Position numbers and translations under genes: made by a program. Of a stretch of DNA of 64,000 nt, positions 1-48,966 are shown one piece after another. Source of the DNA: Acidobacteriota bacterium (lineage in GTDB: Bacteria > Acidobacteriota > CAIWXX01); assembly GCA_016191015.1 (NCBI GenBank), contig JACPPM010000200.1:21954-85953 (forward strand). Reading direction: 5' to 3'. Each line of letters starts with the position of its first letter. The first letter of the stretch is position 1. The notes below the pieces were generated by a model. It had not been told where the DNA came from and ran no database searches. It saw only the letters and a program-made list of their open reading frames with translations.

Positions 1-36
1 AGACCGAGGCCCGGGGCAGACTACAAATCCAGGCTC

Positions 37-378
37 TCAATAGCTGGTGAGCGCCTCTTGCTCAGTGTCGAACACCTCGAACACCGTCAGGAGCTTCGTC
101 ATCGCCATCAGATCCTTGATCCGTGCCGTCAGGCTCAGCAGCTTCAGCTTGCCACCCTTGTCGATGACGGTCTTGTAGTTGCGGATGACCTCACCCAGGC
201 CGGTGCTGTCCATGTACGACACTCCAGCCAGATTCAGCAGAATCTTGTTGTTGCCATCGTCAAGAGACTTGCATATGGCATCCCGCAGCTCCTGGCAGCC
301 GTCACCGATAAGGATTTTCCCCTCAAGGTCCAGTACGACCACATTCCCGGCCTTCCTCGTCGCAATTTTCATGTGCAC
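37..378 (-). CDS. STAS-domain anti-sigma-factor antagonist (SpoIIAA-like)
   Basis: 113-aa ORF with a STAS-fold signature (VVVLDLEG...LDSTGLGEVI), including the conserved phospho-acceptor region. Confidence 0.75.
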   Translation of the reverse strand: MHMKIATRKAGNVVVLDLEGKILIGDGCQELRDAICKSLDDGNNKILLNLAGVSYMDSTGLGEVIRNYKTVIDKGGKLKLLSLTARIKDLMAMTKLLTVFEVFDTEQEALTSY

Positions 379-625
379 AGGCTCCTTTCTCGGAAGCTCT
401 ACCTGAGAGGTAGTTTGCCCGCGTTAGAGACCCGCCAAAAGTACCACAGCAGCCGCAGGGTGTCAACGCAGAGATCGCCTCATCGCCTCATGTCCGCGGC
501 AAAGTCGAGGCGGCTAGATCTTCCGAACTCCTCTCAGGAAAGCAGGAGGGGAGGAATGCAGGAACGGAGCGGTCGTCTCGGCCGATCGGGGTGGCTCGGA
601 AGAACGCTCTCACGCGCGGCTCCGC

Positions 626-795
626 CGCGTTAGGGTGAGGCCGTCCCGTCCGAAACCGCAGATGGCGCAGATCTCCGCGCAGATTACACGGATTTTTCCA
701 GCGCTCAACCGACGAGCGAATTCCTCCTCGCTCTCGGGTCGGCGCGAAGCAATCTGCGACATCTGAGAGTCAATCGGTGGAACTGCGGTATCCGG
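626..795 (+). repeat. Dispersed ~170-bp intergenic repeat, copy A, containing three phased CGCAGAT motifs
   Basis: About 85% identical to 11163-11342 by direct comparison. Core reads gaaaccgcagatggcgcagatctccgcgcagattacacggatttttccagc...gggtcggcgcgaagcaatctgcgacatctgagagtcaatc. An in-frame stop rules out conserved coding. Confidence 0.7.
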
Positions 796-875
796 TACTT
801 TCCGTAGCCAGTAAGATCGCCTACATGGCGGTGCGTTTCTACGAGGTTTGTAGTATAATCCCGGCAGTTTGGCAC

Positions 876-1547
876 ATGGGAAGCATACGCGCGAATGTCG
901 AAGCTGTCCGTGAACGCATGCGGCATGCGGAGAGGCGTGCCGGGCGAACCGAGGGTGCCACGGTCCTGCTCGCGGCTACCAAATCCGTCGATCCGGCATC
1001 GATCGCTGAAGCGGTCTCGGCCGGGGTGAAGGTCATCGGGGAGAACCGGGTGCAGGAGGCCGAGTCGAAGATGAGCGGCCTGCCGGAAGGGGTCGAATAC
1101 CACATGATCGGACACCTTCAGAGCAACAAGGTGAGGACGGCCATGAAGCTCTTCGACTGCATCCAGTCGGTCGATTCCAAAAAGATCGCCCAGCTGGTCG
1201 CCACCGAGGCTCTGCGCCTCGGTCATGCCCGGCGCGTGATGCTCGAAGTCAACGTGGCCGGCGAGGCCAGCAAGGGAGGCTTCGCGCCCGACGATCTCCG
1301 CCGAGACTTCGATGAGATCTCGGAGATGAAAGGGCTGATGGTCGAGGGTCTGATGACGATCCCACCGGCGGACGATCCTCTGGCGGCCCGCCCCTACTTC
1401 AAACAAATCGCCGGGCTCGCCCGGGAGCTTTTCGTCGACCGCCCTGCCCAGCTTTCGATGGGAATGAGCCATGATCTCGAGGTCGCGATCGAAGAAGGGG
1501 CCACGATCGTGCGAGTCGGGACCGCGATCTTCGGCGTGCGTAACTGA
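876..1547 (+). CDS. yggS: YggS-family pyridoxal-phosphate homeostasis protein (alanine-racemase-N fold)
   Basis: Conserved YggS motifs (LLAATKSV, VIGENRVQE, HMIGHLQSNK, EVAIEEGATIVRVGTAIFG). Start set at the internal ATG at 876. A TATAAT hexamer lies at 854-859 just upstream. Confidence 0.85.
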   Translation: MGSIRANVEAVRERMRHAERRAGRTEGATVLLAATKSVDPASIAEAVSAGVKVIGENRVQEAESKMSGLPEGVEYHMIGHLQSNKVRTAMKLFDCIQSVDSKKIAQLVATEALRLGHARRVMLEVNVAGEASKGGFAPDDLRRDFDEISEMKGLMVEGLMTIPPADDPLAARPYFKQIAGLARELFVDRPAQLSMGMSHDLEVAIEEGATIVRVGTAIFGVRN

Positions 1548-1867
1548 TGACCATCCTCGGCGCGAATTTTCTGTCGGCAATGGCTCAGATCCTCGACATG
1601 ATCCTCCAGTTCATGATCGTGCTGATCGTCGTGCGGGCCTTCATCTCCTGGGTCAACCCTGACCCCTACAATCCCATCGTCCGTTTCCTGCATAGCTCCA
1701 CCGAGCCGATGCTGCGCCCGTTCCGCCGCTTCATCTCGCCGTGGAAGACGGGCGGGATCGACTTCTCACCCCTCATCGTCATCGTGCTTCTCGTCTTCAT
1801 CCGCATTCTCATCGTACAATCTCTCGTGGACTGGGCCTTTCGCATCCGCGGCGGAAGGCCACTCTGA
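1547..1867 (+). CDS. yggT: YggT-family membrane protein
   Basis: 106 aa with two hydrophobic segments and a YggT-like motif (VRAFISWVNPDPYNP). Start overlaps the yggS stop by 1 nt (TGATG). Confidence 0.8.
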   Translation: MTILGANFLSAMAQILDMILQFMIVLIVVRAFISWVNPDPYNPIVRFLHSSTEPMLRPFRRFISPWKTGGIDFSPLIVIVLLVFIRILIVQSLVDWAFRIRGGRPL

Positions 1868-1883
1868 ATCCGGAGGGCGTCTC

Positions 1884-2390
1884 ATGAAGATCACACCATC
1901 GGATCTCCAGCATCAGTCGTTCAACGTGAAGTTCCGCGGATACGACCGCGAAGAGGTTCGCGCGTTCCTCAATTTTGTCTCGGAAGAGTACGAGATGCTC
2001 GTCAGCGAGGGCACCAGGTCACGCGAGGAGACCGTACGGCTGCGCGAGAAGCTGTCGGACCTCGAGGAGCGCGAACGGATCCTCAAAGATACGCTCCTGA
2101 GCGCCCAGCGCATGGCTGACGACCTGAAAGAGACGGCCAAGAAGGAAGCGGCGCTGATTGTGAAGGAGGCTGAGCTCCGGGCTGACGCGGTGATCGAACA
2201 GGCGCAACACCGTCTGAGGAAGCTGCAAGAAGAGGCCGCCGAGGTCCGTCTCCTGCGCACAACGCTCGAGGAGAAGCTCCAGCTCTACATCAACAACCTC
2301 CAGAAGATGCTCGACATGCATCAGGAAGAGGACTCCTCGCAGGACCGCCTTTCGCTCTTCTCGCGGCTGCAGCGGAGAGAAAAGAGCTAG
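1884..2390 (+). CDS. divIVA: DivIVA-domain cell-division protein
   Basis: N-terminal DivIVA motif (ITPSDLQHQSFNVKFRGYDREEVRAFL) followed by coiled coil. GGAGGG ribosome-binding site upstream. Sits in the yggS-yggT-divIVA order typical of the tail of a cell-division gene cluster. Confidence 0.85.
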   Translation: MKITPSDLQHQSFNVKFRGYDREEVRAFLNFVSEEYEMLVSEGTRSREETVRLREKLSDLEERERILKDTLLSAQRMADDLKETAKKEAALIVKEAELRADAVIEQAQHRLRKLQEEAAEVRLLRTTLEEKLQLYINNLQKMLDMHQEEDSSQDRLSLFSRLQRREKS

Positions 2391-2413
2391 ACCCCCGGGT
2401 GCCTCCCGACGCG

Positions 2414-3562
2414 TCAGCGCGAGACGAGCAAGCCGAGCCGATCCGAGAGCGCCTGGCAGTGCGCACGCCATGAAAATGCCTTGACGCGCTCCCGTGCCGT
2501 CCGCCCCATCGCCTCACGAAGCCCGGCATCGGAGGCCGCTTGCGTGATGGCCGCCGTGAGAGCCGTGCAATCTCCCTCGTCGTAGTAAAGCCCCCCGTCC
2601 CCCACGATCCCCACGATCTCCGGTACACGGATCGTCACAACCGGAAGTCCGACAGCCATCGCTTCGAAAATCTTCAACGGAGACCAGTAGAAGCCGAGCT
2701 GCAGATGCTTGTGGGCCGATGTGTCGAAGGGGGCGACCGCAAAATCGGCCGCCTCCATATAGGCCGGCATCTCTTCGTAGGCGACGCGGCCGGTGGAGAT
2801 GATGCGGCCGGCCGGCGCATGCTCTGACGCGTACTGCATGGCGCGGCCGAGGGTCGGGCCCTCGCCGATCAGCATCACATACAGCTGCACACCCGATCTC
2901 TGCATCACATCGCACGAGGCACGCACCAGCGTCTCCGCGCCGTGCCATCGTCGGAATGACCCCGTGAAAAGTGCGACGGCCGCATGCGGCGGGATACACA
3001 GCTTCTCGCGGATCATCGCCTTCTTCCCATCAGGCTGGAACCGGTCGGTGTTCGCTCCCCACGGGAGCCGGAGCACTTTCTGTGGATCGGTACCAGGGGG
3101 GAGGATCTGCGGCAACGGCGTCACGATCAGATCCGCGCACTCCCCGATCCAATTTCGATACCGTTCGAGCGGTCTGAAGAGGAGCAACCGATCAAGCCAT
3201 TCCTTTGGGGAGCCTCTGTAGTCGATCATCGGGGAGTTCACTTCGAGCACGAAGGGGACCGCAGTTTCGCGCTTCAACAGCGCTCCCTCACCACCGAAAT
3301 TGTAGTACCGTTCGATCACTACGTCGGGACGCAAGTTTCTCAGTTCCCTCCGAAGCCACATCCAGTTCAGCACTCGCGCCTGACGTGGCACGCGACGCGA
3401 TGAAGAGTGGTAGGCCGGGTTGCTTCCACTCGCTCGACACCTCGCCACAACATGCACATCGTGGCCCAGCGCCGCGAGATTCTCAGCGACCTCGCGCACG
3501 TGCGTGGCACCACCGTGCCCCATCCCGAGATCGACGTCGCACGCCAGGTAACACACTCTCAT
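2414..3562 (-). CDS. Glycosyltransferase family 4 (GT-B fold)
   Basis: N-terminal MRVCYLACDVDLGMGHGGATHVREVAENLAALGHDV and a C-terminal GT1/GT4 sugar-donor-binding region. Start trimmed to the ATG at 3562, since the extended ORF reaching 3748 has no homology. Confidence 0.8.
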   Translation of the reverse strand: MRVCYLACDVDLGMGHGGATHVREVAENLAALGHDVHVVARCRASGSNPAYHSSSRRVPRQARVLNWMWLRRELRNLRPDVVIERYYNFGGEGALLKRETAVPFVLEVNSPMIDYRGSPKEWLDRLLLFRPLERYRNWIGECADLIVTPLPQILPPGTDPQKVLRLPWGANTDRFQPDGKKAMIREKLCIPPHAAVALFTGSFRRWHGAETLVRASCDVMQRSGVQLYVMLIGEGPTLGRAMQYASEHAPAGRIISTGRVAYEEMPAYMEAADFAVAPFDTSAHKHLQLGFYWSPLKIFEAMAVGLPVVTIRVPEIVGIVGDGGLYYDEGDCTALTAAITQAASDAGLREAMGRTARERVKAFSWRAHCQALSDRLGLLVSR

Positions 3563-3662
3563 GAGGAATCGCCCACGGCCCGTGATCCATGGCTCACCGG
3601 GCCGCGCTGTGCCGGTCCGGCTGAAGACCCGGACCTCCGACCTCCAACCCTCGACCTCACCG

Positions 3663-6173
3663 TCACGCGCCGGGCAGGAGCACTCGGACTCGCTCGACCA
3701 GCTCCTTAAGAGTATACGGTTTCTGGAGGAATCCCAGGGCACCGGCATGCAGGAGCTGTCCGATCGAGGCGTCCATGCTATACCCGCTCGAGAGCAGAAC
3801 CCGACAGGCCGGGTATTTGGCCAGCAGGGCCGCCAAGACCTCGCCGCCGCTCATGCCGGGCATCGTGAGATCGAGGATCACGAGGCCTATCTCGTGATGA
3901 TGCTGTGCATAAACCTCCAGGGCCCCGGCGCCATCTGAGGCCTGGAAAACACGATATCCAACCTCTTCGAGCATCGTCCCCGCAGGGTCGCGGACGACGT
4001 CTTCGTCGTCAACCACGAGGATTGCACGACCTGTCGCCGCGCTTGGCGCACTGGCGGATGTCGGCTGTTGGACGCTCGCGATCGGAATATAGATGGTGCA
4101 CATCGTTCCCATACCGACACTGGTGCCGATGTCGATCAGACCGTTGTGCGCTTTCGCGATGCCGTAAACGGTGACGAGCCCAAGCCCCCGCGCCGGCAAA
4201 TCGTGCTTGGTGGTGAAGAACGGCTCGAACAGATGTGCCCGCGTGCTCTCATCCATGCCGCTCCCGGTGTCCGAGACGCGGACGAAAACATACTGACCTC
4301 CGCCGGCCCATGGACGCGTCCTGAGGAAGTCCGAGTCGAGCCACTCGGACCCGGTCTCAATCAGGATCCGCCCGCCGGTCGGCATCGCGTCGCGCGCGTT
4401 GTTGACGAGGTTCAAGAGGCCGACACGGATCTGCGCGGAATCGAGATCCACCTCAGGGAGCGCCTCCTCGAGCCTGGATTCCAGACTCACCGACGGGTCC
4501 AAAGTCCTGCCCACCTCACGCAGGAGCTCACGGACCAGAGCGTTCAGATCCGCGATGGCGAGTTGAACCATCGGGCGTCTGGAAATGGCGATCAGCTTCT
4601 GCGTCAGCCCCGCTCCTCGTTCCGCCGTCCTCAACACGTTCTCGAGGTTGCCACGGAGCTCGTGCTGAAGGCCGGCGCGGTTCAAAACCAGCGTCGTGTA
4701 GCCGATGATACCGGTGAGCAGGTTATTGAAGTCGTGGGCAAGGCCTCCGGCGAGCTGCGCGACGGTCTCCATCTTCTGCACCTGGACCAGCTGCCGTTCG
4801 AGCTCCTTTTTGTGCGTCACGTCCACAAGCGTGCCCTCAAAGTGCAGCGGTCGTCCGTCCGGGTCCCGGACGACTCTGGCGGATTCCTGCACGGTGACAA
4901 CCCGGCCGTCCTTTCGCCGCAGCACCAGATCCTCGGCTCGGAAGGCCCCCTCCTCCAGCAGTTTCGCCACATACTTCTTGCGCTCCTCCGGATTGGGGTA
5001 CAGAGCCTGGGCGATCTTGAGGGACTGCATTTCCTCGATCGAGTCGTATCCGAGCATCCGATAGAGAGCGGGGTTGCCCGTGATCAGCGTCCCATCGATC
5101 GTGGTCTGGTATATGGCCTCGATGGCATTTTCGAAAATCGAGCGGTATTTGAGCTCGGAGAGAGCCAGGCGAGCCTGCAGCGCCTCCAGCTCATTCAGCC
5201 TCCGCCGCTCCTCCTGCCGCCGCTGCACGTGGTCGATGCCGATCGCGGCAATCCGGCCGACACGACCCAGAAGCTCCACTTCCTGTGGTGTCCACACGCG
5301 CTGGCGGGAGCACTGGTGAACGAGCACGAGCCAGGTGGCGCCGGAGAGCGTGTGAATGCCGAGTCCCAGCGTCGAGCGAATGGAAAGAGCCGGGAAGGCC
5401 TCGACGAGGGCCGCGACCACCGCCGCGTGCTCGTCCAGCTCCACAGGCCCCGCCCCGTTCGCAACGCATGCGAAGAGCGCATCCAGAAGCGGTGTGTTGC
5501 GATCGGTGCAAATCTCGCCGGCGGGCGCAAGTCCCGATTCCGAGTCCTCGTACCGGGCCCCGGCGGCAGCCGATCCAGACGGCAGCACCGGTACCAGCCA
5601 GCACCGGTCGGCGCCGAATCCTGCCCGCAGACGGCCGGCCAGAATCTGCAGAAACTCGCCGGTGCCGCGCGCACTGTCCATGAGAGTGAGAATCCCATCG
5701 GTCATCGCTTCGTGGGAGACCTTCGCGGAGTACTCCTCGAGAAGCCGCTTCTGGGTCGTCACGTCCCGCTGCACGGCGAGGAACCACGCACCGGCACCGC
5801 TCGGGTTGGGAATAGGAAAAATCGATAGCTCGACCGTGAACAGATACCCCTTCTTGTGCCGGTTCACGACCTCGCCTCTCCACAAATGCCCGGCCAGAAC
5901 CGTCTCGAACATCTCTCTGTAGAAGCCCGATGGGTAGAGTCCGCTCTTCAGAAAGCGAGGGGTCTTTCCGATCGACTCCGCGAGCGTGTAGCCGGTCAGC
6001 TCCTCGAAGGCACGATTCGTGTAGCGAATCGTCCCCGCGGTGTCCGTGATGAAGACGGCATCGGAGATGAGGGCCAGTGCCTCGTCCAGCGGGATCCGCT
6101 CCCCGCGCGCCGGGCGCCGGTCGAGATACTCCCGGATGATGCGCGGCAGGAGCCGCCGCATGGACTCTTTCAT
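3663..6173 (-). CDS. Hybrid sensor histidine kinase (PAS-GAF-PAS-HisKA-HATPase_c-receiver)
   Basis: PAS signature ITDTAGTIRYTNRAFEELTGY. H-box HDFNNLLTGIIGY. G-box DTGSGMD...FEPFFTTK. C-terminal receiver ILVVDDEDVV...ILDLTMPGMSG. Confidence 0.85.
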   Translation of the reverse strand: MKESMRRLLPRIIREYLDRRPARGERIPLDEALALISDAVFITDTAGTIRYTNRAFEELTGYTLAESIGKTPRFLKSGLYPSGFYREMFETVLAGHLWRGEVVNRHKKGYLFTVELSIFPIPNPSGAGAWFLAVQRDVTTQKRLLEEYSAKVSHEAMTDGILTLMDSARGTGEFLQILAGRLRAGFGADRCWLVPVLPSGSAAAGARYEDSESGLAPAGEICTDRNTPLLDALFACVANGAGPVELDEHAAVVAALVEAFPALSIRSTLGLGIHTLSGATWLVLVHQCSRQRVWTPQEVELLGRVGRIAAIGIDHVQRRQEERRRLNELEALQARLALSELKYRSIFENAIEAIYQTTIDGTLITGNPALYRMLGYDSIEEMQSLKIAQALYPNPEERKKYVAKLLEEGAFRAEDLVLRRKDGRVVTVQESARVVRDPDGRPLHFEGTLVDVTHKKELERQLVQVQKMETVAQLAGGLAHDFNNLLTGIIGYTTLVLNRAGLQHELRGNLENVLRTAERGAGLTQKLIAISRRPMVQLAIADLNALVRELLREVGRTLDPSVSLESRLEEALPEVDLDSAQIRVGLLNLVNNARDAMPTGGRILIETGSEWLDSDFLRTRPWAGGGQYVFVRVSDTGSGMDESTRAHLFEPFFTTKHDLPARGLGLVTVYGIAKAHNGLIDIGTSVGMGTMCTIYIPIASVQQPTSASAPSAATGRAILVVDDEDVVRDPAGTMLEEVGYRVFQASDGAGALEVYAQHHHEIGLVILDLTMPGMSGGEVLAALLAKYPACRVLLSSGYSMDASIGQLLHAGALGFLQKPYTLKELVERVRVLLPGA

Positions 6174-6356
6174 CGCACGTCACCGACCGAAGTCATCTCC
6201 GGATGCCGAACGTGATCTCCGACGTCGCCCCCCGTCCAGTCGGAAGATTGGCCCGTGAACCTCGGGCCCGGGACTTCCGCCATTCTCACACTCCCTATGC
6301 TACGTCAGCCGCCTTCACTTGTCGCCTAGTTTGCGTCATCGCTGCCGTGACCACAG

Positions 6357-6385
6357 TTGCAATTCCACGGCGTCTTTTGTAGAAT
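6357..6385 (+). promoter_or_regulatory. Sigma70-like promoter upstream of yjbQ (TTGCAA, 17-bp spacer, TAGAAT)
   Basis: TTGCAA at 6357-6362, a 17-nt spacer, then TAGAAT at 6380-6385, about 85 nt upstream of the yjbQ start. Confidence 0.4.
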
Positions 6386-6470
6386 GTCAAGTTCCATGTT
6401 ATGGGAAGCACGATCGGACTGCCGACGATTTGAAACAAAAGGCCCATTGCGGGCTTGAGAAAAGGAGCCC

Positions 6471-6971
6471 ATGATGCATCTGACCGCAGTGTCTGAACTC
6501 CCTGTCGAGAAAGCCGAGGACCGCGCTCCACTAGTCAAATTCTTCTCGAAAACTTTCAAGTTCACGACCGAGAAGAGGCTCGAACTCTACAACATCACTT
6601 CCATCGTCGCCGACATCGTCAAGGAATTCAAGATAAAAGAAGGATTCATCAACATCGGTACTCTGCATACGACCACCGCTATGTTCGTCAACGAGTTCCA
6701 GAAGGCACTGCTTGACGACATCAAGGTGTTCATGAATAAGATCATCAATCCGGAGGAGGCCTGGAAGCACAACTGCCCGGATTGCTCCGACTGCGACCGC
6801 AAGAACGCCGATTCGCACTTGCGCGCACTGCTGTTCGGCCACAACCTCCAGATCCCGATCGTCAACGGCAACCTGGCACTCGGGCAGTGGCAGTCAATTA
6901 TCCTGGCCGAGCTTGACGGCCCGCGCGAGCGGACGCTGACCGCGCATGTCTTCGGAGCAGCGTCCGCCTAA
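6471..6971 (+). CDS. yjbQ: YjbQ/UPF0047 family protein (secondary thiamine-phosphate-synthase-like)
   Basis: Family motifs FINIGTLHTTTAMFVNE and LLFGHNLQIPIVNGNLALGQWQSI. Carries an unusual Cys-rich insert, CPDCSDCD. Confidence 0.8.
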   Translation: MMHLTAVSELPVEKAEDRAPLVKFFSKTFKFTTEKRLELYNITSIVADIVKEFKIKEGFINIGTLHTTTAMFVNEFQKALLDDIKVFMNKIINPEEAWKHNCPDCSDCDRKNADSHLRALLFGHNLQIPIVNGNLALGQWQSIILAELDGPRERTLTAHVFGAASA

Positions 6972-6974
6972 CGA

Positions 6975-7056
6975 GTTCAAAGTTCCAAGTTCAAAGTTCC
7001 AAGACCAACGAGTGGCGCGTTCGGGATTCTTGAACTTTGAACTTTAAACTTTGAAC
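6975..7056. terminator. Long AT-rich hairpin between convergent yjbQ and maeB (candidate bidirectional terminator)
   Basis: Left arm gttcaaagttccaagttcaaagttccaag (6975-7003) pairs imperfectly with right arm cttgaactttgaactttaaactttgaac (7029-7056). Each arm also contains a tandem repeat of its own. Confidence 0.5.
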
Positions 7057-9318
7057 TTACTTGGCCGCCGCGGCGCTCTCCTGCGCGTCCACGACCGCGA
7101 TGGCGCACATGTTGACGATGTCGCCCACCTCGGCCCCCCGCTGCAGCACGTGCACCGGCTTGCTCAGGCCCATCAGGATCGGCCCGATCGCCTCCGCACC
7201 GCCGATCCGTGCCAATAGCTTGTAAGCGATGTTCCCGGATTGGAGGTCCGGGAAAATCAGGACATTCGCCCGCTCCTTCAGTCGCGAGAAAGGGTAGGTC
7301 GATGTCAGGATGTCCGAGACGACCGCCGTGTCTGCTTGCATCTCGCCGTCGACCATGAGGGACGGGTCTTTACGCCGCACGAGATCCACCGCTCTGGCCA
7401 CGCGCTCGGTATGCGGGTGGCGCGTCGAGCCGAAGTTCGAGAAGCTGAGCATCGCCACCTTGGGCTCGACGTCGAACCGGCGAGCCGTTTCCGCGGCGCA
7501 GATCGCGATCTCGGCCAGATCTTCAGCCGACGGATCGATGTTCACCGTGGCGTCGGCAAAGAAGAAGACGTCCTTCTTGAAGACCATCATGTAGAGACCC
7601 GACACTTTCGAGAGCCCCTCGCGGATCTTGATGATCTGGAGCGCCGGGCGAATCGTGTCGGGGTAATGTTGCGTCAATCCGGCGATGACACCGTCGGCGT
7701 CTCCGAGGTGGACCATCATCGAACCGTAGTAGTTCGGATCGTGCATCAGAGTCGCCGCTTCGGCAAGTGTCACGCCGCGGCGCTGGCGGATCGCGTAGAG
7801 CGCCTGCACGTACTCGTTGAACTTGGGGGACGCCGCCGGCTCGATCGTCTCGGCGCCATCGAGCTCGAGTGCCAGCTCCTGCACCTTCGCGCGGATCGCC
7901 TCCCGGTTGCCCAGCAGGATCGGCTTTGCGATACCTTCGTCCACGATGATTTCGCACGCCCGCAGGATCTTCTCCTCCTCACCCTCGGGAAACACGATGC
8001 GTTTGGGCGTGTTCTGGGCCTTGTGAATCACCATCCGCATGATCTCGCGGCTCTTGCCCAGCCGCGCTTCAAGCTCGTCACGATACCGCTCGAGATCGAT
8101 CTTGATGCGCGCCACGCCCGACTCCATCGCCGCGCGCGCCACCGCAGGTGCCTCGCGCAAAAGGACGCGGGGATCGAGCGGCTTCGGAATGATGTAGGTC
8201 GGGCCGAACTTGAACTTCGTGTTACCGTAGGCGCGGCAGACCGAATCCGGCACGTCCTCTTTTGCCAGGTCCCGCAGCGCGTACACGGCTGCTATCTTCA
8301 TCTCTTCATTGATGGCCCGGGCCCGCACGTCGAGCGCCCCGCGGAAGATGAAGGGGAAGCCGAGAACGTTGTTGACTTGGTTTGGAAAATCACTCCTGCC
8401 CGTGGCCATGATCACGTCCGGTCGCGCCGCAACCGCATCGTCATACATGATCTCCGGGTCGGGGTTCGCCATCGCGAACACGATCGGGTTCTTGGCCATG
8501 GCCTTGACCATCTTCTGGCTCACAGCCCCCTTCACCGACACGCCGATGAAGGCGTCCGCCCCGATCATCGCCTCCTCCAGGGTCCTCAGCTTGGTCTCCT
8601 GAGCGTACTTCTCCTTATACGGATTCATCCCCTCGGTGCGGCCTTTGTAAATCACCCCATGGCTGTCACACATGGTGAGATTCCCAATCTCCACCCCGAG
8701 ACTCAGGTAGAGATTCGCACACGCGATGCCCGCGGCCCCAGCCCCGTTGAACACGACCTTCACCTTGTCGATGTCTTTCCCGACGATTTCCAAAGCATTC
8801 AGAAACGCTGCGCCCGAGATGATCGCCGTTCCATGCTGGTCATCATGAAAAACCGGGATCTGACACTCGCGCTTCAGCGTCTCCTCGATATAGAAGCACT
8901 CGGGAGCTTTGATGTCCTCCAGGTTCACCCCGCCAAATGTCGGTTCGAGCAGCTTCACCGCCTTGATGACGTCGTCCGGATCCAGCGTGTTCAGCTCGAT
9001 GTCAAAGACGTCGATGTCGGCGAAGCGCTTGAACAGGATCCCCTTCCCCTCCATCACCGGCTTCCCGGCCAGGGGGCCGATGTTGCCCAGGCCCAGAACC
9101 GCAGTGCCGTTACTCACCACCGCCACCAGGTTGCCTTTGGCCGTGTACGAGTAGACGTCATCGGGGTTCCGGTAGATCTCCATGCAGGGATCTGCAACCC
9201 CGGGCGTGTATGCCAACGAGAGGTCGCGCTGGGTTGAGCACGGCTTGCTCGAGATGACCTCGATCTTCCCCTTGCGCCCCTGAGAGTGATAATCCAGAGC
9301 GTCTTGCTTGCGTATCAT
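7057..9318 (-). CDS. maeB: NADP-dependent malic enzyme (malic-enzyme plus phosphotransacetylase-like domains)
   Basis: 753 aa. N-terminal malic-enzyme motifs ([33 protein letters not shown]) and a C-terminal PTA-like domain. GAGGAGG ribosome-binding site and an AT-rich -10-like stretch upstream on the minus strand. Confidence 0.9.
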
Positions 9319-9539
9319 GAATGCGTCCTCCTCATAACAGACGAAAATATAATACGGTTAAACGATAACCCAAAACGAGCCAGGCCACAAGCGGCGTAGA
9401 GCCGAAGCCCTGAGCGGAGGGGTAGATCGTGGAGCGAGACGTAAACCGGCGCAGGCAGCTACGGACACCCCGCGGAGCGGCAGGCAGGAACCAACCGGTC
9501 ACCTCCGGTCGTTGAGACTGGCACGAATCGCTCTACGCT

Positions 9540-11075
9540 TTACGCTCCACGCTCTCCAGGCTCGAACTCGATGTTGTTTCTCCTTAGAAGCGCCAGAAAA
9601 CCGTCCTTGTCAACGGCGCTCTTGAATGCATCAGCCGCCTCCACCGTCCCGCCCTTCACCAGCTCGAAGAGGGCATCGTTGAGTGTCACCATCCCGACAC
9701 CCTTGGAAGTCTGCATCACAGAGGGGATTTGGAATGTCTTTCCTTCCCGAACCAGATTGCTGATCGATGGGATGCCGATCATTACCTCCATGGCGGCGAC
9801 TCGTCCCCCGCCTTTCTTCTTCAGGAGCACCTGCGAAATGACCCCTTTCAAGGAGTCCGAGAGCATGACCCGGATCTGCGATTGCTGGTTCGGCGGGAAC
9901 TGGTCGATGATGCGGTCGATGGTCTGAGCGGCGCCGGAGGTGTGGAGGGTGCCGAAGACGAGGTGGCCCGTGACGGCCGTCTCGATGGCGATGGCTATGG
10001 TCTCCAGGTCTCTCAGCTCGCCGACAAGGACGATGTCGGGGTCTTCCCGGAGGGCAGCTCGAAGAGCGCGCTTGAACGATTCGGTGTGGACACCAACCTC
10101 GCGCTGGTTGACCAGACATCCCTTGTTCTCGTGAACAAATTCGATCGGATCCTCGATCGTGATGATGTGGTCCTCTCGCTTGCGGTTCACCAGGTCGATC
10201 ATCGCCGAAAGCGTGGTGGATTTGCCCGATCCCGTCGGTCCGGTCACCAGGACGAGCCCCTTGGGGAGGAAACACAGATTCTGAACCTTCGGCGAAAGGT
10301 TCAGGTCTTCGACCGTCACGATCTTCTCCGGGATGATCCGGAAGGCCGCGCCGGTCCCCTTGCGGTCCCGATAGAGATTCGATCGGAATCGGCCCACTCC
10401 CTTCAATTCATACGCAAAGTCCGTATCCCCACACTCCTGGAACTCCTTCGCATTGCGGGCCGGAACGATCTCCTTCAGGAGCTCCATGATCATCGCCTCG
10501 TGCAAGAGGGGCAGCTTGCCGAGCGCGACCATTTCGCCATCCTTCCGCAACATCGGACGCGAATCACTCGCCAAGTGCAGATCGGAGGCGCCGAGGTCAT
10601 GCATTGCGTGAAAGAGGAAGCTCATTGTCACCCGATCGATCGGCTGAAGATCGAGCGTTCTGGGCGCCGGTTCGGGCGACAACGGGAGGGGCGTCTCTTG
10701 CGGCTCACGTACCGGAGACGGCACCTCAACCTCAATCCGGGGCCTCCGCACCGGCACCTCCATCGGAGGAGCTGCCTGCGGGCGGCAGCTGACGAAGAAG
10801 GTATCCTGCTCGCGCTTGGTCATGATCAGGAAACGGTCTCCACCCGCCGGCGAATACGGAAAAGTGAACTCACGCAAGAACTGCTCGTCGAGACGGTCAT
10901 GTTCCGTGAGGATCTCATTGAGCAGGTGCAGGATCTCCCGGGCTGACAGCCCACGGCCGAAAGAATGCTGGCTGCCATCGGGCAGCTTGAAGTGTGGTTT
11001 GTGCCCGGGTCGCAGGACCAGTTCCGATGCGTCCCGCTTGGCCATGGCCGCCAATAGCTGGTCCATGAGAGGCAT
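9540..11075 (-). CDS. PilT-family type IV pilus retraction ATPase with a duplicated N-terminal domain
   Basis: Walker A LVTGPTGSGKSTT, Asp box and His box (GHLVFGTLHT). An extra N-terminal PilT-N-like domain is joined through a Pro-rich linker. The ORF extension to 11291 was rejected. Confidence 0.8.
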   Translation of the reverse strand: MPLMDQLLAAMAKRDASELVLRPGHKPHFKLPDGSQHSFGRGLSAREILHLLNEILTEHDRLDEQFLREFTFPYSPAGGDRFLIMTKREQDTFFVSCRPQAAPPMEVPVRRPRIEVEVPSPVREPQETPLPLSPEPAPRTLDLQPIDRVTMSFLFHAMHDLGASDLHLASDSRPMLRKDGEMVALGKLPLLHEAMIMELLKEIVPARNAKEFQECGDTDFAYELKGVGRFRSNLYRDRKGTGAAFRIIPEKIVTVEDLNLSPKVQNLCFLPKGLVLVTGPTGSGKSTTLSAMIDLVNRKREDHIITIEDPIEFVHENKGCLVNQREVGVHTESFKRALRAALREDPDIVLVGELRDLETIAIAIETAVTGHLVFGTLHTSGAAQTIDRIIDQFPPNQQSQIRVMLSDSLKGVISQVLLKKKGGGRVAAMEVMIGIPSISNLVREGKTFQIPSVMQTSKGVGMVTLNDALFELVKGGTVEAADAFKSAVDKDGFLALLRRNNIEFEPGERGA

Positions 11076-11162
11076 GTCAAGAATCTTATTCCCCCGGTTC
11101 GACCTCGTCAATCCGGCACGCCGGCGATCCCAGGGCTGCGGCAAAGTCGAGGCGCCGACTCG

Positions 11163-11342
11163 GGCGAGGCCGTTCCGTGCGAAACCGCAGATGGCGCAGA
11201 TTTCCGCGCAGATTACGCAGATTTTTCCAGCATTCAACCGACGAGCAACTTGCACCTCACTTTCGGGTCGGCCCGAAGCAATCGGCGACATCTGCGAGTC
11301 AATCTGCGAAATCTCCGGTTTCCGGGACTTTGCCGTAGCCTT
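11163..11342 (+). repeat. Dispersed ~170-bp intergenic repeat, copy B
   Basis: Same orientation as copy A and about 85% identical to it. Lies immediately upstream of the radical SAM gene, with a TAGAAT hexamer at 11389-11394. Confidence 0.7.
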
Positions 11343-11408
11343 GCCGGCGATCCGGCACCGTTTCCCTGCGACTCGCGGGCCGACCTGCTAGAATACAGGA
11401 GAGGATAG

Positions 11409-12479
11409 GTGTCGATGGCGGTCTCGCTCGCGCAGGCCCTCGAGGCCAGAACCCGCGAAGCGGTGCTGTATCAGCCCGAGGGGCATCGCCCCGAGGGGCA
11501 GGATAAAAAAGTCCGGTGCTTCGCATGCGGCCACCGCTGCGTCGTGCCGCCGGGCAGACAGGGCATCTGCAAGGTCCGCTTCAACCGCGACGGAGTGCTG
11601 TATGCGCCGGCCGGCTACGTGGCGGGGCTCCAGTGCGATCCGATCGAGAAGAAGCCGTTCTTCCACGCCTATCCGGGAGCGAGCGCGATGAGCTTCGGCA
11701 TGCTGGGCTGCGACTTCCACTGCGGTTACTGCCAGAATTGGATCACGTCCCAGGCTCTGCGCGACCCCGACGCCGTCTCGTCGATCCGTGAGATGACGCC
11801 GGCAGACATCGTTCGCGCCGCGATACGGTACGGAGCCAAAGTCGTGACGAGCACCTACAACGAACCGCTCATCACCAGCGAATGGGCCGTGGATGTGTTC
11901 AAGGAGGCCAAGCGCCATGGCCTTGTCACCTCCTATGTCTCCAACGGGAATGGGACGAAGGAGGTCATCGAGTTCCTCAGGCCGTGGCTCGACCTCTACA
12001 AGGTGGATCTCAAAGGGTTCAACGATGCCCAGTACCGGAGGCTTGGGGGCGTGCTGAAAAACGTCCTGGACACGATCACGCTGCTGTGGGCGGACGGTTT
12101 CTGGCTGGAAATCGTGACTCTGGTTGTGCCCGGATTCAACGACTCAGACGCGGAGCTTCGGGATATCGCCCGTTTCATCGGGGGCGTCTCCTTCGATATC
12201 CCCTGGCACGTCACCGCCTTCCACCAGGATTACAAGATGAACGATACGGACAACACCGGCGTCGCCGCGCTGCTTCGTGCGGCCGAGATCGGCAGGGCGG
12301 AAGGCCTGCGATTCGTCTACGCCGGCAATCGCCCCGGACAGACGGGCGATCTCGAAAACACCTATTGCCCGGGATGCCATGCCCTGCTTGTCGAGCGGTG
12401 GGGGTTCGAGGTCCTGCAAAACCGCGTCAAGGGCGGCCTGTGCCCGAACTGTTCGATCGCCATCCCCGGTCGGTGGTAG
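11409..12479 (+). CDS. Radical SAM enzyme, AmmeMemoRadiSam-type (PFL-activase-like)
   Basis: Radical SAM CX3CX2C motif (CDFHCGYC), with an additional N-terminal Cys cluster (CFACGHRC...C). An alternative ATG start at 11415 is possible. Confidence 0.7.
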   Translation: MSMAVSLAQALEARTREAVLYQPEGHRPEGQDKKVRCFACGHRCVVPPGRQGICKVRFNRDGVLYAPAGYVAGLQCDPIEKKPFFHAYPGASAMSFGMLGCDFHCGYCQNWITSQALRDPDAVSSIREMTPADIVRAAIRYGAKVVTSTYNEPLITSEWAVDVFKEAKRHGLVTSYVSNGNGTKEVIEFLRPWLDLYKVDLKGFNDAQYRRLGGVLKNVLDTITLLWADGFWLEIVTLVVPGFNDSDAELRDIARFIGGVSFDIPWHVTAFHQDYKMNDTDNTGVAALLRAAEIGRAEGLRFVYAGNRPGQTGDLENTYCPGCHALLVERWGFEVLQNRVKGGLCPNCSIAIPGRW

Positions 12480-18878: not shown

Positions 18879-19670
18879 ATGGAAATAAAAACCGTTATCG
18901 TCGACGACGAACCACTGGCCCTGGAGGAGATGGACTTTCTCCTCAAAGAGCTCAGCGACGTGCGGGTCGTCGGGCGCGCCAGAAACGGCCTCGAAGCCGT
19001 CGATGTCGTGAAGAAGACAGGTCCGGACCTGCTCCTCCTGGACATCCAAATGCCCGGTATGGACGGCTTCGGCGTCCTGAAACAGATCCTCAAGAAGGGC
19101 CGAGCACCTCACGTCGTCTTTGTGACCGCCTTCGACGAGTACGCCATCAAGGCCTTCGAATTCAACGCCGTCGACTACCTGCTCAAACCCGTGGAAAAAC
19201 GCCGTCTCGCACAGGCGCTCGAGAAGGCCCGGCGCGTGTTGGCCGGCTCCGGCGATCGCGATCGCGATCGCGAGGGCGGCGGCGACGGCCGGCTCGAACG
19301 ACTCCTCGCAACCCTCGAACGCAAGCTCGAACCCCCACGGAAGCTGACAATCAAAGTCGGCGGCCGGTATATGCTCATCGACGCCCGCGAAATCATCTAT
19401 GCCACCGTCGAGGAAGGCGCAATCGTGGTCGTCACCGATTCGCTTGCCGGCTCCTCCAACTGCAGGACCCTCGACGAGCTCCAGCAGACTCTCCCGGGCG
19501 ACCTCTTCTGGCGCGCTCACCGATCCCACATCGTCAACATCAACAGGGTCCGTGAAGTCCTTCCCATGTTCAAGCGGACCTACTACCTCAAGATGGCCGA
19601 TCCGAAGGCGGCAGAGCTTCCTGTGAGTCGCGCACAGATCTCCCGATTGAAGGAGCTGTTCAGATTCTAG
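18879..19670 (+). CDS. LytTR-family response regulator
   Basis: Receiver domain (VDDEPLALEE...LLLDIQMPGMDG) plus a C-terminal LytTR DNA-binding domain. A low-complexity DRDRDREGGGDG insert sits in the linker. Confidence 0.9.
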   Translation: MEIKTVIVDDEPLALEEMDFLLKELSDVRVVGRARNGLEAVDVVKKTGPDLLLLDIQMPGMDGFGVLKQILKKGRAPHVVFVTAFDEYAIKAFEFNAVDYLLKPVEKRRLAQALEKARRVLAGSGDRDRDREGGGDGRLERLLATLERKLEPPRKLTIKVGGRYMLIDAREIIYATVEEGAIVVVTDSLAGSSNCRTLDELQQTLPGDLFWRAHRSHIVNINRVREVLPMFKRTYYLKMADPKAAELPVSRAQISRLKELFRF

Positions 19671-20224
19671 CCTCGTCGCATGACAGCGCCTGCGACGAGA
19701 GGCCGCGTTGCGGCAGCCCCAACGCGGCTGAGGCGCAACCAAAAAGGTTGCGTCTCAGCCGCGCGTGAGAGCGTCCGGCCCGCTTCGCGGGCCTGGAGCG
19801 TGGAGCGTGAGAGCGTTCTTCCGAGCCACTCTGGTAGGTTCGAGGCGACTGCTCCGTTCCTGCATTCCTCTCCTCCTGCTTTCCTTAGAGCGATCGGGAG
19901 GATTCAGCATTGTCAAGAATCTTGCCATTTCGTGTCAACACGCAACTTGTAAGACACTAAGACCGGAAGGGAAACCGCAGATTGCACTGATGACGCAGAT
20001 TCCCCCGGGCGACGATCTCGCCTGACAACATGTTGGAGAGAACCGGCGCTGAGGCGCCTGGAGCCGGCTCCCCAAAACAATCGGATATTCGATGACATTC
20101 GCGAGCGACGTGAGACCGGCTGCCAAGCCCGGCGCAGCCTGGATTGACTCGCGCGGCTGCGGTGTTCCTTGGATCTCAGGCTGCGAATCAGGGCTGTTGA
20201 CAGGGTGACAACCGAGTGCCATAC

Positions 20225-30624: not shown

Positions 30625-30701
30625 GCGCCCGTAGCTCAGTTGGATAGAGCGACTGACTACGAATCAGTAGGTCGGGGGTTCGAGCCCCTCCGGGCGCTCC
30701 A
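30625..30701 (+). tRNA. tRNA-Arg (anticodon ACG)
   Basis: Manual cloverleaf fold. Acceptor stem GCGCCCG/CGGGCGC, D-arm GCTC..GAGC, anticodon stem ACTGA/TCAGT with loop CTACGAA, T-loop TTCGAGC, 3' CCA. Confidence 0.9.
30653..30701 (+). repeat. attL: 49-bp direct repeat, the 3' half of tRNA-Arg
   Basis: ctgactacgaatcagtaggtcgggggttcgagcccctccgggcgctcca is repeated at 54382-54430 with 3 mismatches. Confidence 0.85.
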
Positions 30702-31308: not shown

Positions 31309-31407
31309 ATGCCGACACAGAGACACAGCGAGTACGTGCTGATCGGGGCACTCCCCGACGACCCCACCGACTACGACCACGAGACCGTGGATTGCTGGGA
31401 CCGATGA
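31309..31407 (+). CDS. Small ORF (32 aa), translationally coupled to the helicase gene
   Basis: GGAGG ribosome-binding site upstream. Its stop overlaps the next gene's start (ATGA). No homology was assessed. Confidence 0.35.
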   Translation: MPTQRHSEYVLIGALPDDPTDYDHETVDCWDR

Positions 31408-32294
31408 CCACGGACCCCCTCGATGGCAGCCTCGCGAGACGTGTCCCGATCTCGCTGCGGGCCCTCGTCGACGCGTCGCTGCCCCCACTCGATTACGTCT
31501 TGCCCGGTATGCTTGCTGGGACCGTTGGCGCACTGATCTCGCCGGGCGGCGTCGGGAAGAGCTGGTGGGCTCTCCAGGCGTCCGTCTATCTCGCCGGCGG
31601 CCCCGACATACTTGGACTGGACGATCCCAGAGCCCGGCAGCTTCGCCCGGGTCCCGTCGTCTATCTCGCAGCCGAAGACCCCGAGCTGCCCTTGCTGTAC
31701 CGTCTCCAGGCCCTCGCGCGGATGATGGACGATGCCACTCTCGACCGCGTGGATCGCAACCTCCACGTCATCCCGCTCCTTGGGGAATCGCTCGATGTGA
31801 TGACGCCACCTTATCGGCAGGCACTCACCCACTATGCGAAGGGCACGCGGCTCATTGTGATCGACACCCTCCGCCGCGCGCACACCCTCGACGAAAATTC
31901 GAGTGGCGACATGGCCCGTCTCCTGGCTGTCCTAGACCAGGTCGCCGTCACAAGCAACTCGGGTGTGCTCTATCTGCACCACACCACGAAGAGCGCGGCC
32001 CTGTCGGGCCAGGGCGACCTGCAGCAGGCCGCACGCGGATCGTCCGTCCTCGTCGACAACATTAGATGGCAGGCATACGTCTCGGGGATGTCCGAGGCAG
32101 AGGCCGACCGGTACGGGATCACCGACGAGGATCGACGGCTCTACGTCCGAGCCGGCGTAGCCAAGATCAACTACGGTGCTCCTCTACCTGAGCGGTGGTA
32201 CCGTCGTGATGAGAGAGGCATCCTGCGGCCAGCCGATCTCCGTCCGATAGCTACTCGGACGAGGAGGACGCGGCAGGAGGCCCTCTCCGTATGA
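31404..32294 (+). CDS. RecA-like AAA_25 ATPase (RepA-helicase-like replication protein)
   Basis: Walker A SPGGVGKSWWAL and Walker B LIVIDTL. Resembles phage/plasmid RepA-like helicases. Confidence 0.7.
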   Translation: MTTDPLDGSLARRVPISLRALVDASLPPLDYVLPGMLAGTVGALISPGGVGKSWWALQASVYLAGGPDILGLDDPRARQLRPGPVVYLAAEDPELPLLYRLQALARMMDDATLDRVDRNLHVIPLLGESLDVMTPPYRQALTHYAKGTRLIVIDTLRRAHTLDENSSGDMARLLAVLDQVAVTSNSGVLYLHHTTKSAALSGQGDLQQAARGSSVLVDNIRWQAYVSGMSEAEADRYGITDEDRRLYVRAGVAKINYGAPLPERWYRRDERGILRPADLRPIATRTRRTRQEALSV

Positions 32295-32298
32295 CGCG

Positions 32299-33423
32299 GT
32301 GCGGCACGGAGACGGGAGGCCAGACATGAGCGGACGCCCCACAACGCAAACCGATCACGCCCGGCACCACCCCGCGCACTGCATGGCGCCAGGGTTGTTT
32401 CGATCACTGAAGGGCCGGAGTCGCACGGACCGCCCCGCCCTCGACATCAGATACACCTGGGGCGACGCTGAGTACCACTTCCTTGGCGTGGCACTTGGGG
32501 TCGAGGACATGCGTGTCTTACAGGCGCTGACCGCGATCGCGGGTGTGCGCGGTCTACAGCTCCCGCACGAGTCGACTCGGCCGCGAGACCCGCACTGGGA
32601 GCGTCTGCGCCGCACACTCGAGGATACGCCTGCCGACGGCAGTCCGCGGGACCACCGCTCCGCTACCGCTGCGGCTCTCGTGACGAGTCGCTATCGTCTA
32701 GCGGTCGAGGCCGGCTGGGAACCGCACTCCGCCCGCCGCATGCACCTCCTGCTGGAGGCGCTGGAGCGCCTTGGCGCGATCTCGCTCTACGTCACGCACG
32801 GCGCCAAGATCACGGGTCCGTACCGGCTGCTCGCCTTTTTGCTTGATCGAGACACCGACAGACTGCTGATCGCTCTCAACCCGCACATCGCCGCCACAAT
32901 CCTCGGCACCATACCCAGCGTGGCCTATGTCTCGCTCGTCGAGGCACGCGCGCTCACAACCGACCCCAGCCGCCTGCTGCACCAGTGGCTATCCGCGTGG
33001 ATCGGACCCGGCCAAGCGCGCCTCATCTCTATCGACGCAATCTGCTCGCATATCTGGCCCGACAGGGCCACGGACCGGAAGCTACGTGATCGGCGTCTCA
33101 AGGCCCGGGCCAGTCTCGACGAGATCGCCGCACTACCGTACTGGCAGGTCACCCCCCTCCGTCCTGACACCTGGCGCATTTCGCGCCGACGGGGCCTCCC
33201 CTCCGTCGGGGTGTACCGACATCGTCGTTGGGGTGTACCGGCATCGACGTTGGGGTGTACCGGCATCGACGCCCCCCCAGATGCCCATCCGCATCACAGC
33301 CGCTACCAGCGCGGGTCCCAGCCACCAGCGTCACTACCGGACGAAACCGCTCTAGTAGATACTAGAGAGTATCTAGGGCGCGAGGCCCTGGATGACCTCG
33401 CGCCCTCTGGGCCATGGAGATGA
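32299..33423 (+). CDS. Putative replication initiator-like protein holding internal iterons
   Basis: No recognizable catalytic motif. Placed between helicase-like and primase-like genes, and its 3' end holds three 22-bp direct repeats. Confidence 0.4.
   Translation: MRHGDGRPDMSGRPTTQTDHARHHPAHCMAPGLFRSLKGRSRTDRPALDIRYTWGDAEYHFLGVALGVEDMRVLQALTAIAGVRGLQLPHESTRPRDPHWERLRRTLEDTPADGSPRDHRSATAAALVTSRYRLAVEAGWEPHSARRMHLLLEALERLGAISLYVTHGAKITGPYRLLAFLLDRDTDRLLIALNPHIAATILGTIPSVAYVSLVEARALTTDPSRLLHQWLSAWIGPGQARLISIDAICSHIWPDRATDRKLRDRRLKARASLDEIAALPYWQVTPLRPDTWRISRRRGLPSVGVYRHRRWGVPASTLGCTGIDAPPDAHPHHSRYQRGSQPPASLPDETALVDTREYLGREALDDLAPSGPWR
33208..33273 (+). repeat. Three tandem 22-bp iteron-like repeats (ggggtgtaccgRcatcgWcgYY)
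   Basis: Units at 33208-33229, 33230-33251 and 33252-33273. The 22-bp period is not a multiple of 3, so this is a DNA-level repeat. Followed by a C7 run. Confidence 0.7.
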
Positions 33424-34220
33424 GGCGTCAGCTCGCGTGGTACGACTCCGTGGGCGTGGACCGGTTCGATATCGCCGTCTCTCTGAGCGCCGACAACAGC
33501 GACGGCATGATCTGGCACCGCGACATCACCGCCGATCGAGTCATCGCGCTCAGACCCTTCGCCGCGGCGCGCAACGCCGCTGGCGCGAACATCTACGTCC
33601 GGCCGGCTCGTGGTCACGACTGGCCGGTTCTCCTGCTCGATGACATCACTCGCTCTTGGGCGGATCGGATCCAGCGCGCCCGCGCCTGCTGCCTGGTCGA
33701 GACCAGTGCCGCCAATCACCAGGCGTGGATCCACTGCGCTCGTTCCCTGGATGAGCCGGAGCGGTGCGCGTGCCAGCGCGCGATCGCAACCAAGATCGGT
33801 GCGGATATCGGCTCGGTCAGTGGGGAGCACCTCGGCCGCCTCGCAGGCTACCGGAACAACAAACCCGGGCGCGGAGGGCACTGGGTACGCATCCATGCGA
33901 TCGGCGCCGGCCCAGCGTGGGATCCGTCGCGCGTCCTCGCCGCTCAGAGTCCCGGCGATCTCCCGCAGCCGACTCCACCCCCAGGGGGGGCTGTGGTTCA
34001 CGGCGGCGGCGGACCGGATGAGAGCGCCGACGAGTGGGGCTATGTATGCGGCCGGCTGACGTGGCTACGCGACTCGCACGCCTCGGACTCACGCATCACG
34101 GCCGAGCTCGCGGCGATGTCGGCGCAGCTGGAGCGACGCGCGGTCGCACGCCACAAAGCAAAGCCGGCACAGTACGCGGCCCGCACCGTCGCCAACGCAC
34201 GCCGGAGGATCGGGGTGTGA
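33414..34220 (+). CDS. Putative primase/replication protein (RepB'-like)
   Basis: Motifs NIYVRPARGHDWPVLLLDDI and QAWIH. Start overlaps the upstream stop. Assignment is tentative. Confidence 0.4.
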   Translation: MEMRRQLAWYDSVGVDRFDIAVSLSADNSDGMIWHRDITADRVIALRPFAAARNAAGANIYVRPARGHDWPVLLLDDITRSWADRIQRARACCLVETSAANHQAWIHCARSLDEPERCACQRAIATKIGADIGSVSGEHLGRLAGYRNNKPGRGGHWVRIHAIGAGPAWDPSRVLAAQSPGDLPQPTPPPGGAVVHGGGGPDESADEWGYVCGRLTWLRDSHASDSRITAELAAMSAQLERRAVARHKAKPAQYAARTVANARRRIGV

Positions 34221-47796: not shown

Positions 47797-48093
47797 TCGC
47801 CGCCATGCCCCGGTGCGAAGACGGAGTGCCGGCAGTCACGACGAGTCCTTCGCCGTCGCTCGCCTGGGCCCGCTCTCACGCCCCGCGTCTCGGGCACGCT
47901 TCGCTCTCCGGCTCCGTTGCAGACGGGTCCCCTCCCGCCTTCGGCGGGAACCCTCCCCATCTTCACTCCGCCTCCGGCCTGAGAAGCGGGGACGCGGGCC
48001 TTTAGGGCGAGGCGACGGCGAAGGACTCATCGTGAGACAGGCGGCGGCAGACAATACACAGTAATGCGTGTATTGCCGCCAAAGCCGCACGAG

Positions 48094-48120: not shown

Positions 48121-48135
48121 AACCGTAAGAACTCC

Positions 48136-48948: not shown

Positions 48949-48966
48949 CCGTTGGAACTGTAGGTC

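Follow-up and report, generated by a model that had tools for sequence, protein, structure and literature searches.

Probable miniature transposable elements with phased CGCAGAT arms in an Acidobacteriota genome, and related heptad arrays elsewhere

Introduction

The small dispersed repeats of bacterial genomes include MITEs (transposable elements of miniature size with inverted repeats), of which Correia/NEMIS, ERIC/IRU, RUP and Nezha are examples. These are small, non-coding, intergenic sequences with inverted repeats and a target-site duplication, which show insertion polymorphism between strains, can fold into a long hairpin and are tolerated beside promoters. The same features recur in two copies, A and B, of a repeat located in a 64-kb stretch of an Acidobacteriota metagenome-assembled genome (MAG; contig JACPPM010000200.1), which is the sequence analysed here and is called the window throughout. 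Both copies are, we argue, probably non-autonomous transposable elements of the MITE type and represent a new family. They depart from the described MITEs in having unusually long (~58 nt) arms built of heptads and in that no parent insertion sequence has been identified; furthermore, the core array of the window element is shared with unrelated phyla, whereas its outer ends are lineage-specific. As a MITE the element is ordinary, while its heptad-built arms belong to a widespread and apparently undescribed class of module.

The best mechanistic analogue of these arrays is provided by the ends of the IS607 family, to which the serine transposase TnpA binds cooperatively through its winged-helix domain, with binding nucleated by four helically phased direct repeats of 9 bp, in a family spanning bacteria, archaea and viruses (PMC6188088). 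Both systems carry phased short direct repeats with A/T-rich spacers near the two ends; however, IS607 makes no target duplication, whereas that of the window element is 9 bp long. Derivation from IS607 was considered and rejected, since the 54 TnpA loci that we fetched show phased ends but with AATCT/AGATT motifs, opposite polarity and GG termini. No serine recombinase was found near the arrays, and the signature Y-x-R-[VICLM]-S-[ST]-x-x-Q occurs in no open reading frame (ORF) of the fetched loci, including ~240 array loci.

Two other kinds of repeat invite comparison. The RAYT-mobilised REP/REPIN sequences are likewise dispersed intergenic palindromes forming long hairpins with no linked transposase and, like the simple CGCAGAT hairpins found in other genomes, lack a target duplication. 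The window copies differ from them in their 9-bp duplications and in arms composed of tandem heptads rather than palindromic REPs with a conserved 5' GTAG, and on these grounds membership of the REP/REPIN group was rejected; moreover, REP families are lineage-specific, whereas the CGCAGAT heptad crosses phyla. The TAACTGA heptamers of Beggiatoaceae, cyanobacteria and Bacteroidetes form a precedent, as a heptamer array that spans phyla and is unexplained. They occur in tandem in intergenic regions, often just upstream of start codons, as direct repeats with one indirect repeat in the genome described, and their means of spread is unexplained (PMC4679880). Unlike these, the CGCAGAT units stand 2-5 nt apart, with a period of 9-12 bp, and frequently have an inverted array as their partner.

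Structure of the two elements

Copies A and B lie in the same orientation, 10.5 kb apart. An initial annotation of the window, made from its letters alone, had described them as two copies about 85% identical, and this is confirmed by alignment, positions 633-782 and 11162-11311 being 87% identical over 150 nt free of gaps and a BLAST comparison giving 86% identity over 179 nt. The phased CGCAGAT motifs noted in that annotation are likewise present. In copy A they start at 657, 666 and 678, and a fourth unit reads CACGGAT (687-693), while in copy B all four units are CGCAGAT, starting at 11186, 11195, 11207 and 11216; in both copies the start-to-start spacing is 9, 12 and 9 bp. The window contains 29 occurrences of CGCAGAT against 15.8 ± 3.8 expected, a count reached in none of 100 shuffles, and runs of three or more are confined to the two copies. 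The repeat was rightly judged to be non-coding: no plausible ORF covers either copy, no ORF is kept between them, and 1-nt indels separate the two in alignment.

On the other hand, the extent of ~170 bp originally assigned to the repeat is too short, and a mirror array was overlooked. The full elements occupy 481-813 (copy A, 333 bp) and 11120-11349 (copy B, 230 bp), both on the plus strand, the bounds of A being set by its homology to B and by alignment to an empty site in a relative (locus L244, discussed below). The 3' third of each copy contains heptads of the ATCTGCG type with the same 9-12-9 spacing, so that the unit as a whole is a long imperfect hairpin. Its arms of about 58 nt consist largely of the four phased heptads. 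In copy A the 5' arm (657-693) faces a decayed 3' arm (752-788) reading ATCTGCG (752-758), ATCTGAG (761-767), ATCGGTG (773-779) and A-CTGCGG (782-788), with a small central hairpin (CCGACGAGCG...CGCTC..GGGTCGG) at 709-742. In copy B the corresponding positions are 11186-11222 for the 5' arm, 11238-11271 for the central hairpin and 11281-11317 for the 3' arm, which reads ATCGGCG (11281-87), ATCTGCG (11290-96), ATCTGCG (11302-08) and ATCTCCG (11311-17). Perfect heptads are thus retained at three of four positions in the 5' arm of A and at four of four in that of B, but at one and two of four, respectively, in the 3' arms. Folding of A and B on either strand yields a long imperfect hairpin of -68 to -83 kcal/mol (z = -1.8 to -3.5).

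Outside the heptads, each copy is bounded by subterminal inverted repeats, which conform to a 15-nt consensus, GGCTRCGGCAAAGTC, with 0-2 mismatches. Both ends of copy B match it perfectly (11134-11148, GGCTGCGGCAAAGTC; 11326-11340, minus strand, reverse complement GGCTACGGCAAAGTC), while in copy A the 5' repeat (492-506, GTCCGCGGCAAAGTC) has two mismatches and its partner lies at 795-809 on the minus strand (reverse complement GGCTACGGAAAGTAC). Beyond these repeats, both copies are flanked by exact 9-bp direct duplications, which differ in sequence between the sites: AGATCGCCT at 472-480 and 814-822 for copy A, and ATCCGGCAC at 11111-11119 and 11350-11358 for copy B.

The greater length of copy A arises because a second repeat, R2 (513-621, plus strand, 109 bp), which is unrelated to the element, splits a segment that runs unbroken in copy B; without R2, copy A measures 224 bp. 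No flanking duplication surrounds R2 in copy A. A further copy of R2, inverted and 88% identical, lies 19 kb away at 19805-19890 (reaching 19908 in a broader delimitation), and since the two differ by a 1-nt indel, a small ORF common to both is unlikely. This distal copy has an additional 42-nt hairpin insert (about 19760-19805) flanked by duplicated ACGCTCTCACGC. Adjoining it is a possible but weak remnant of a third 5' arm (19974-20000, plus strand), consisting of aaaCCGCAGAT and CGCAGAT 18 bp apart, for which no convincing partner arm was found.

Occupancy of the insertion sites in relatives

Loci of relatives, designated by L-numbers, were fetched via the flanking proteins. In L244, whose YggS protein is 93% identical to that encoded beside copy A, the spacer between the STAS-domain gene and yggS is uninterrupted at site A. 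The 9-mer AGATCGCCT is present there once, and when copy A and one 9-mer are taken out of the window sequence, what is left aligns with this site throughout, apart from one 1-nt indel. In L243 (YggS 95% identical), a 168-bp element (2735-2902) flanked by GCCTGAC lies ~5 bp from site A; its ends are homologous to those of the window element (GGCTACGGCAGAGTC...), whereas its orientation is opposite and its repetitive core is different. Similarly, copy B is missing from the syntenic intergenic region of L120, which has the same gene order and a radical SAM protein 93% identical to that of the window, and the flanks align to L120 once copy B and one 9-bp repeat are removed. In L122 the terminal repeat recurs without mismatch behind the radical SAM gene, where the contig ends. 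The relatives also carry hairpins with other arm units, of the CGTAG, CACCAAG/CACCAGG and GTACCC types (L120 560-640, 8985-9078 and 9745-9812; L243 2735-2902).

Taken together, the elements display the properties by which MITEs are recognised: they are shorter than ~500 bp (224-230 bp without R2), non-coding, bounded by subterminal inverted repeats and by a target duplication of fixed length, and polymorphic for presence or absence. The nesting of R2 in copy A and the asymmetric decay of the arms add to this support. Of the three possibilities raised for the repeat at the outset, a miniature mobile element, a shared regulatory module and a small structured RNA, it is therefore the first that is borne out, by the 9-bp target duplications, the inverted repeats, the empty orthologous site, the nested insertion and the related elements elsewhere.

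CGCnGAT arrays in other genomes

When each species, represented by one genome, was scanned for three CGCAGAT motifs separated by short gaps, at least 119 array loci emerged, compared with roughly five estimated by chance, and a scan of viral contigs with the same kind of pattern returned at least 120. The genomic carriers belong to Verrucomicrobiota, Planctomycetota, Chloroflexota, Acidobacteriota, Nitrospirota, Cyanobacteria and Bacteroidota, and further to Proteobacteria, Desulfobacterota, Omnitrophota and the archaeal Methanosarcinales/Methanoperedens. Coding 9-nt repeats, as in L126/L210 and L061, are a source of false positives in such pattern scans. A partner arm of 70% identity or more lies no further than 350 nt away in 103 of the distinct arrays, the loop between the inverted arms measuring 6-298 nt (median 44). 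The partner arms match at 93.9% of heptad positions and 92% of the three outer nucleotides, but at only 61% of spacer positions (odds ratio 9.8), and the fourth position of the heptad is free, so that the motif is better written CGCnGAT.

The arrays take several forms. Some phage contigs contain three to nine hairpins placed exactly between co-directional genes, and in one of them all 18 heptads are perfect although the spacers all differ. Many phage contigs and a Chitinophagaceae MAG contain single-arm arrays of a subtype with the 9-12-9 spacing seen in the window (tttccCGCAGATnnCGCAGATnnnnnCGCAGATnnCGCAGAT); these lie upstream of genes in either orientation and once in frame inside an ORF for a structural protein. 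Beyond the contigs scanned, BLAST found no match to the arrays among the cultured phages of INPHARED, and in PLSDB matches were confined to Nostocales plasmids, one of which, on examination, was free of IS607. A literature search with exact sequences (10- to 17-mers) yielded no description of a CGCAGAT array, and a keyword search gave analogues only. In other loci, array flavours such as CGCAAAG, CACTAAG, CACGAAG and CACAGAT fit the pattern C-R-C-N-R-A-K, which hints at a motif superfamily.

Comparison of close relatives indicates turnover at such positions. In an intergenic slot with ~96% identical flanks, L168 has a CGCAGAT hairpin where L205 has an unrelated palindrome. L222 and L177 (~90% identical flanks) share an orthologous hairpin with six CGCAGAT units in one and six CACAGAT/CACCGAT units in the other, each with a matching partner arm. 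The L187 array equals that of L148 plus three variant units, and in the phage contigs L124 and L227 (flanks roughly 97% identical, judged by eye) the same in-ORF array has different spacers. Sites A and B in the lineage of the window show the same slot behaviour. Other palindromic modules are frequent inside array loops, and other widespread small palindromes, for example GTAGGGGCAATTCATGAATTGCCCCTAC and GTCATTCCCGCG...CGGGAATC, occupy loops or slots in L231 (300-470), L124 (3340-3400), L108 and L205. The latter palindrome resembles Neisseria dRS3, and the nesting has a 'Russian-doll' pattern.

We tentatively raise the possibility, to which we attach limited confidence, that the CGCnGAT arrays constitute an undescribed cross-domain class of DNA (or RNA) module recognised in a sequence-specific manner, of which the MITE is one carrier. 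In form the module comprises three or four heptads spaced at 9-12 bp, which mostly make up two inverted arms with a variable loop between them and sometimes a single 9-12-9 array. The constancy of the heptads against changing spacers, seen even between phage contigs ~97% identical, the differing occupants of orthologous slots and the nested palindromes would fit such a class. Candidates for the recognising factor are a transposase or recombinase that is promiscuous and not linked to the arrays, a conserved DNA-binding protein of host or phage, or an enzyme of the methyltransferase type; methylation of ATCTGCG, if it occurs, could account for the parallel CGC to CAC changes. Among the cultured carriers of the arrays are Geothrix fuzhouensis SG12, Draconibacterium sediminis, Oligosphaera ethanolica DSM 24202 and strains of Nostocales such as Dolichospermum and Nodularia.

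Mobilisation of the elements

How might such an element have reached its present positions? We suppose that a MITE would have been moved in trans by a transposase of the DDE type encoded elsewhere, a class suggested by the 9-bp staggered cut, and would have inserted, with duplication of the 9-bp target, into narrow gaps between divergent core promoters. By analogy with the helically phased subterminal repeats at the ends of IS607, Tn7 or Mu, the phased heptads may serve as multiple binding sites for the transposase or for another protein, and any effect on the neighbouring genes would be a by-product of insertion.

Several observations weigh against this interpretation. No autonomous element or transposase with the same ends was found; a metagenome scan with the terminal repeat gave 120 chance matches, mostly in coding sequence and lacking a partner repeat, and one with the 25-nt central motif gave none. 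All-against-all clustering of ORFs around the 119 genome loci and 120 viral loci disclosed no gene family linked to the arrays, the families recovered being confined to ABC ATPases, response regulators and structural proteins of phages. In the 64-kb window, the part of the genome covered, two full copies could be counted, and L243 and L122 carry related ends. Between the duplication and the inverted repeat, the outermost 3-18 nt are unlike in A and B, so that the exact termini are not fixed, and site B gives a less clear-cut comparison than site A because L120 has its own unrelated hairpin insert of ~130 bp nearby. Finally, the simple CGCAGAT hairpins elsewhere show no target duplication longer than 4 bp, the shorter ones being palindromic, so the heptad core may move or arise differently from the outer shell.

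Other candidates were tried and rejected. The distant inverted arrays that might have bracketed autonomous elements were found to enclose phage structural genes, not transposases, and likenesses of the outer unit to helix 45 of 16S rRNA, to integron attC (AAC...GTT) and to piggyBac/IS1380 ends (TTAA-CC) were set aside as short, probably chance resemblances.

Neighbouring genes and alternative explanations

As initially annotated, each copy lies upstream of a plus-strand gene. That downstream of A (876-1547) encodes a YggS-type protein (PF01168) which is identical to MBI2839615.1 and whose homologues are named YggS family, and that downstream of B (11409-12479) a radical SAM enzyme with homologues named AmmeMemoRadiSam. 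Both intergenic regions are divergent, copy A separating the STAS-domain gene from yggS and copy B separating a type II secretion system (T2SS) ATPase gene from the radical SAM gene. One alternative to mobility is then that the element is a shared cis-regulatory module, in which the heptads serve as tandem operator or activator sites co-regulating yggS and the radical SAM gene, in the manner of the direct repeats bound by regulators of the OmpR/PhoB, SARP, CtsR or LytTR type. Heptads with 2-5-nt spacers and a pair period of 21 bp do resemble the sites of known tandem-binding regulators. The better preservation of the 5' than the 3' arms in both copies and, in the 103 hairpins elsewhere, the conservation of heptads at 94% against 61% for spacers, which points to sequence-specific recognition, also accord with this possibility, as does a gene for a LytTR regulator (18879-19670) beside the possible third remnant. 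Furthermore, of the 14 occurrences of GTCAAGAAT (which on the other strand reads as the -35-like ATTCTTGAC), 4 fall no more than 110 nt from an array, where ~0.1 would be expected.

Nevertheless, we consider a regulatory role unlikely. Orthologous promoters in relatives whose proteins are 93-95% identical (L244 and L120 among them) have no arrays, and the 5' arrays of the window lie ~160-200 bp upstream of the -10 hexamers rather than adjacent to a -35 element. In addition, the arrays of the window are accompanied by their mirror image and by inverted repeats and target duplications, while arrays elsewhere face either way, may separate phage genes that run in the same direction, and in one case are in frame within an ORF. 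The TATAAT and TAGAAT hexamers said to follow the copies do exist (854-859 and 11389-11394), but both lie outside the elements and are retained in relatives lacking them, and are therefore the host genes' own promoters. On the minus strand at site B, a predicted promoter (TTGACG 11111-11106, TAAGAT 11088-11083), which also persists in relatives, abuts the left duplication, so that copy B sits in a narrow gap between two back-to-back core promoters. We infer that placement between core promoters reflects tolerated insertions and not function.

The association of GTCAAGAAT with arrays is itself unexplained. In 2 Mb of sequence it occurs 14 times, and it is found 7-101 nt upstream of arrays in two other loci (L003 and L366), of a Planctomycetia MAG and a Sphaerospermopsis plasmid, and twice in the window (11076 and 19912), the occurrence at site B lying outside the MITE.

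A second alternative, that a structured RNA is transcribed from the element, acting as a small RNA, as a terminator or as a hairpin for processing or stabilisation, appears more doubtful still. It would account for the stability that the long hairpins show whichever strand is folded (-68 to -83 kcal/mol, z down to -3.5) and for the exact placement of the phage hairpins between co-directional genes, a common position for intercistronic stem-loops, and one orthologous phage pair does show matched arm changes (CGCAGAT/ATCTGCG versus CACAGAT/ATCTGTG and CACCGAT/ATCGGTG). In the window, however, differences between the arms of A and B break pairs, and no compensatory change was detected between them; there is no U-tract terminator and, both copies being located between divergent genes, nothing there to terminate. 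Rfam gave no match to the copies, whether at the gathering threshold for the window or at E<=5 for positions 1-12000, nor to 15 other array-carrying loci. In the hairpins elsewhere the spacers are just 61% complementary, the fourth heptad position tolerates all mismatches, and wobble-compatible and wobble-incompatible transitions are equally frequent (15 versus 17).

That the copies derive from a local segmental duplication, as the presence of two full copies only, 10.5 kb apart and in the same orientation, might suggest, or are a chance likeness of two intergenic regions, is scarcely credible, given that the homology ends at the element boundaries between unrelated flanking genes, each copy has its own, different 9-bp duplication, one or both copies are missing in relatives, and related ends occur on other contigs.

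If the copies are indeed MITEs, the repeats are to be annotated as mobile-element insertions and not as promoters, operators or small RNAs of yggS or the radical SAM gene, and they mark intergenic hot spots that vary between close relatives.

Other features of the window

Only 7 nt separate the end of the predicted minus-strand promoter beside copy B (TTGACG-17-TAAGAT, 11075-11111) from the ATG of the T2SS-type ATPase gene, which lacks a Shine-Dalgarno sequence, and L120 has the same promoter layout (TAGAAT-7-ATG), which suggests that the ATPase mRNA is leaderless. Between the convergent ORFs 6471-6971 (plus strand) and 7057-9318 (minus strand) lies another palindrome with tandem-heptamer arms (6957-7074, AAAGTTC/GAACTTT), the single Rfam match of which is a spurious miRNA (E=0.07). 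At 19242-19293, overlapping GCGATCGC units (GCGATCGCGATCGCGATCGCGA) make a short palindrome in or near the coding region of a response regulator.

Further downstream, a tRNA-Arg(ACG) gene (30625-30701) adjoins genes for RepA-like (AAA_25), RepC and RepB-primase proteins (31392-34220). A 94% copy of the 3' 51 nt of this tRNA lies at 54381-54431, adjoining a gene for a tyrosine integrase (53047-54204, minus strand), and the ~23.7 kb so bracketed (30625-54431) looks like an integrated IncQ-like mobilisable element. A 31-nt unit occurs four times at 48009-50336, and further repeat families are found within or beside this region (48009-52292, 54581-55754), some with motifs of the CCCCCCTGGGGG type. 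Segments of 150-190 nt are likewise duplicated ~3.5 kb apart (51070-52139 versus 54581-55754), straddling the distal att copy.

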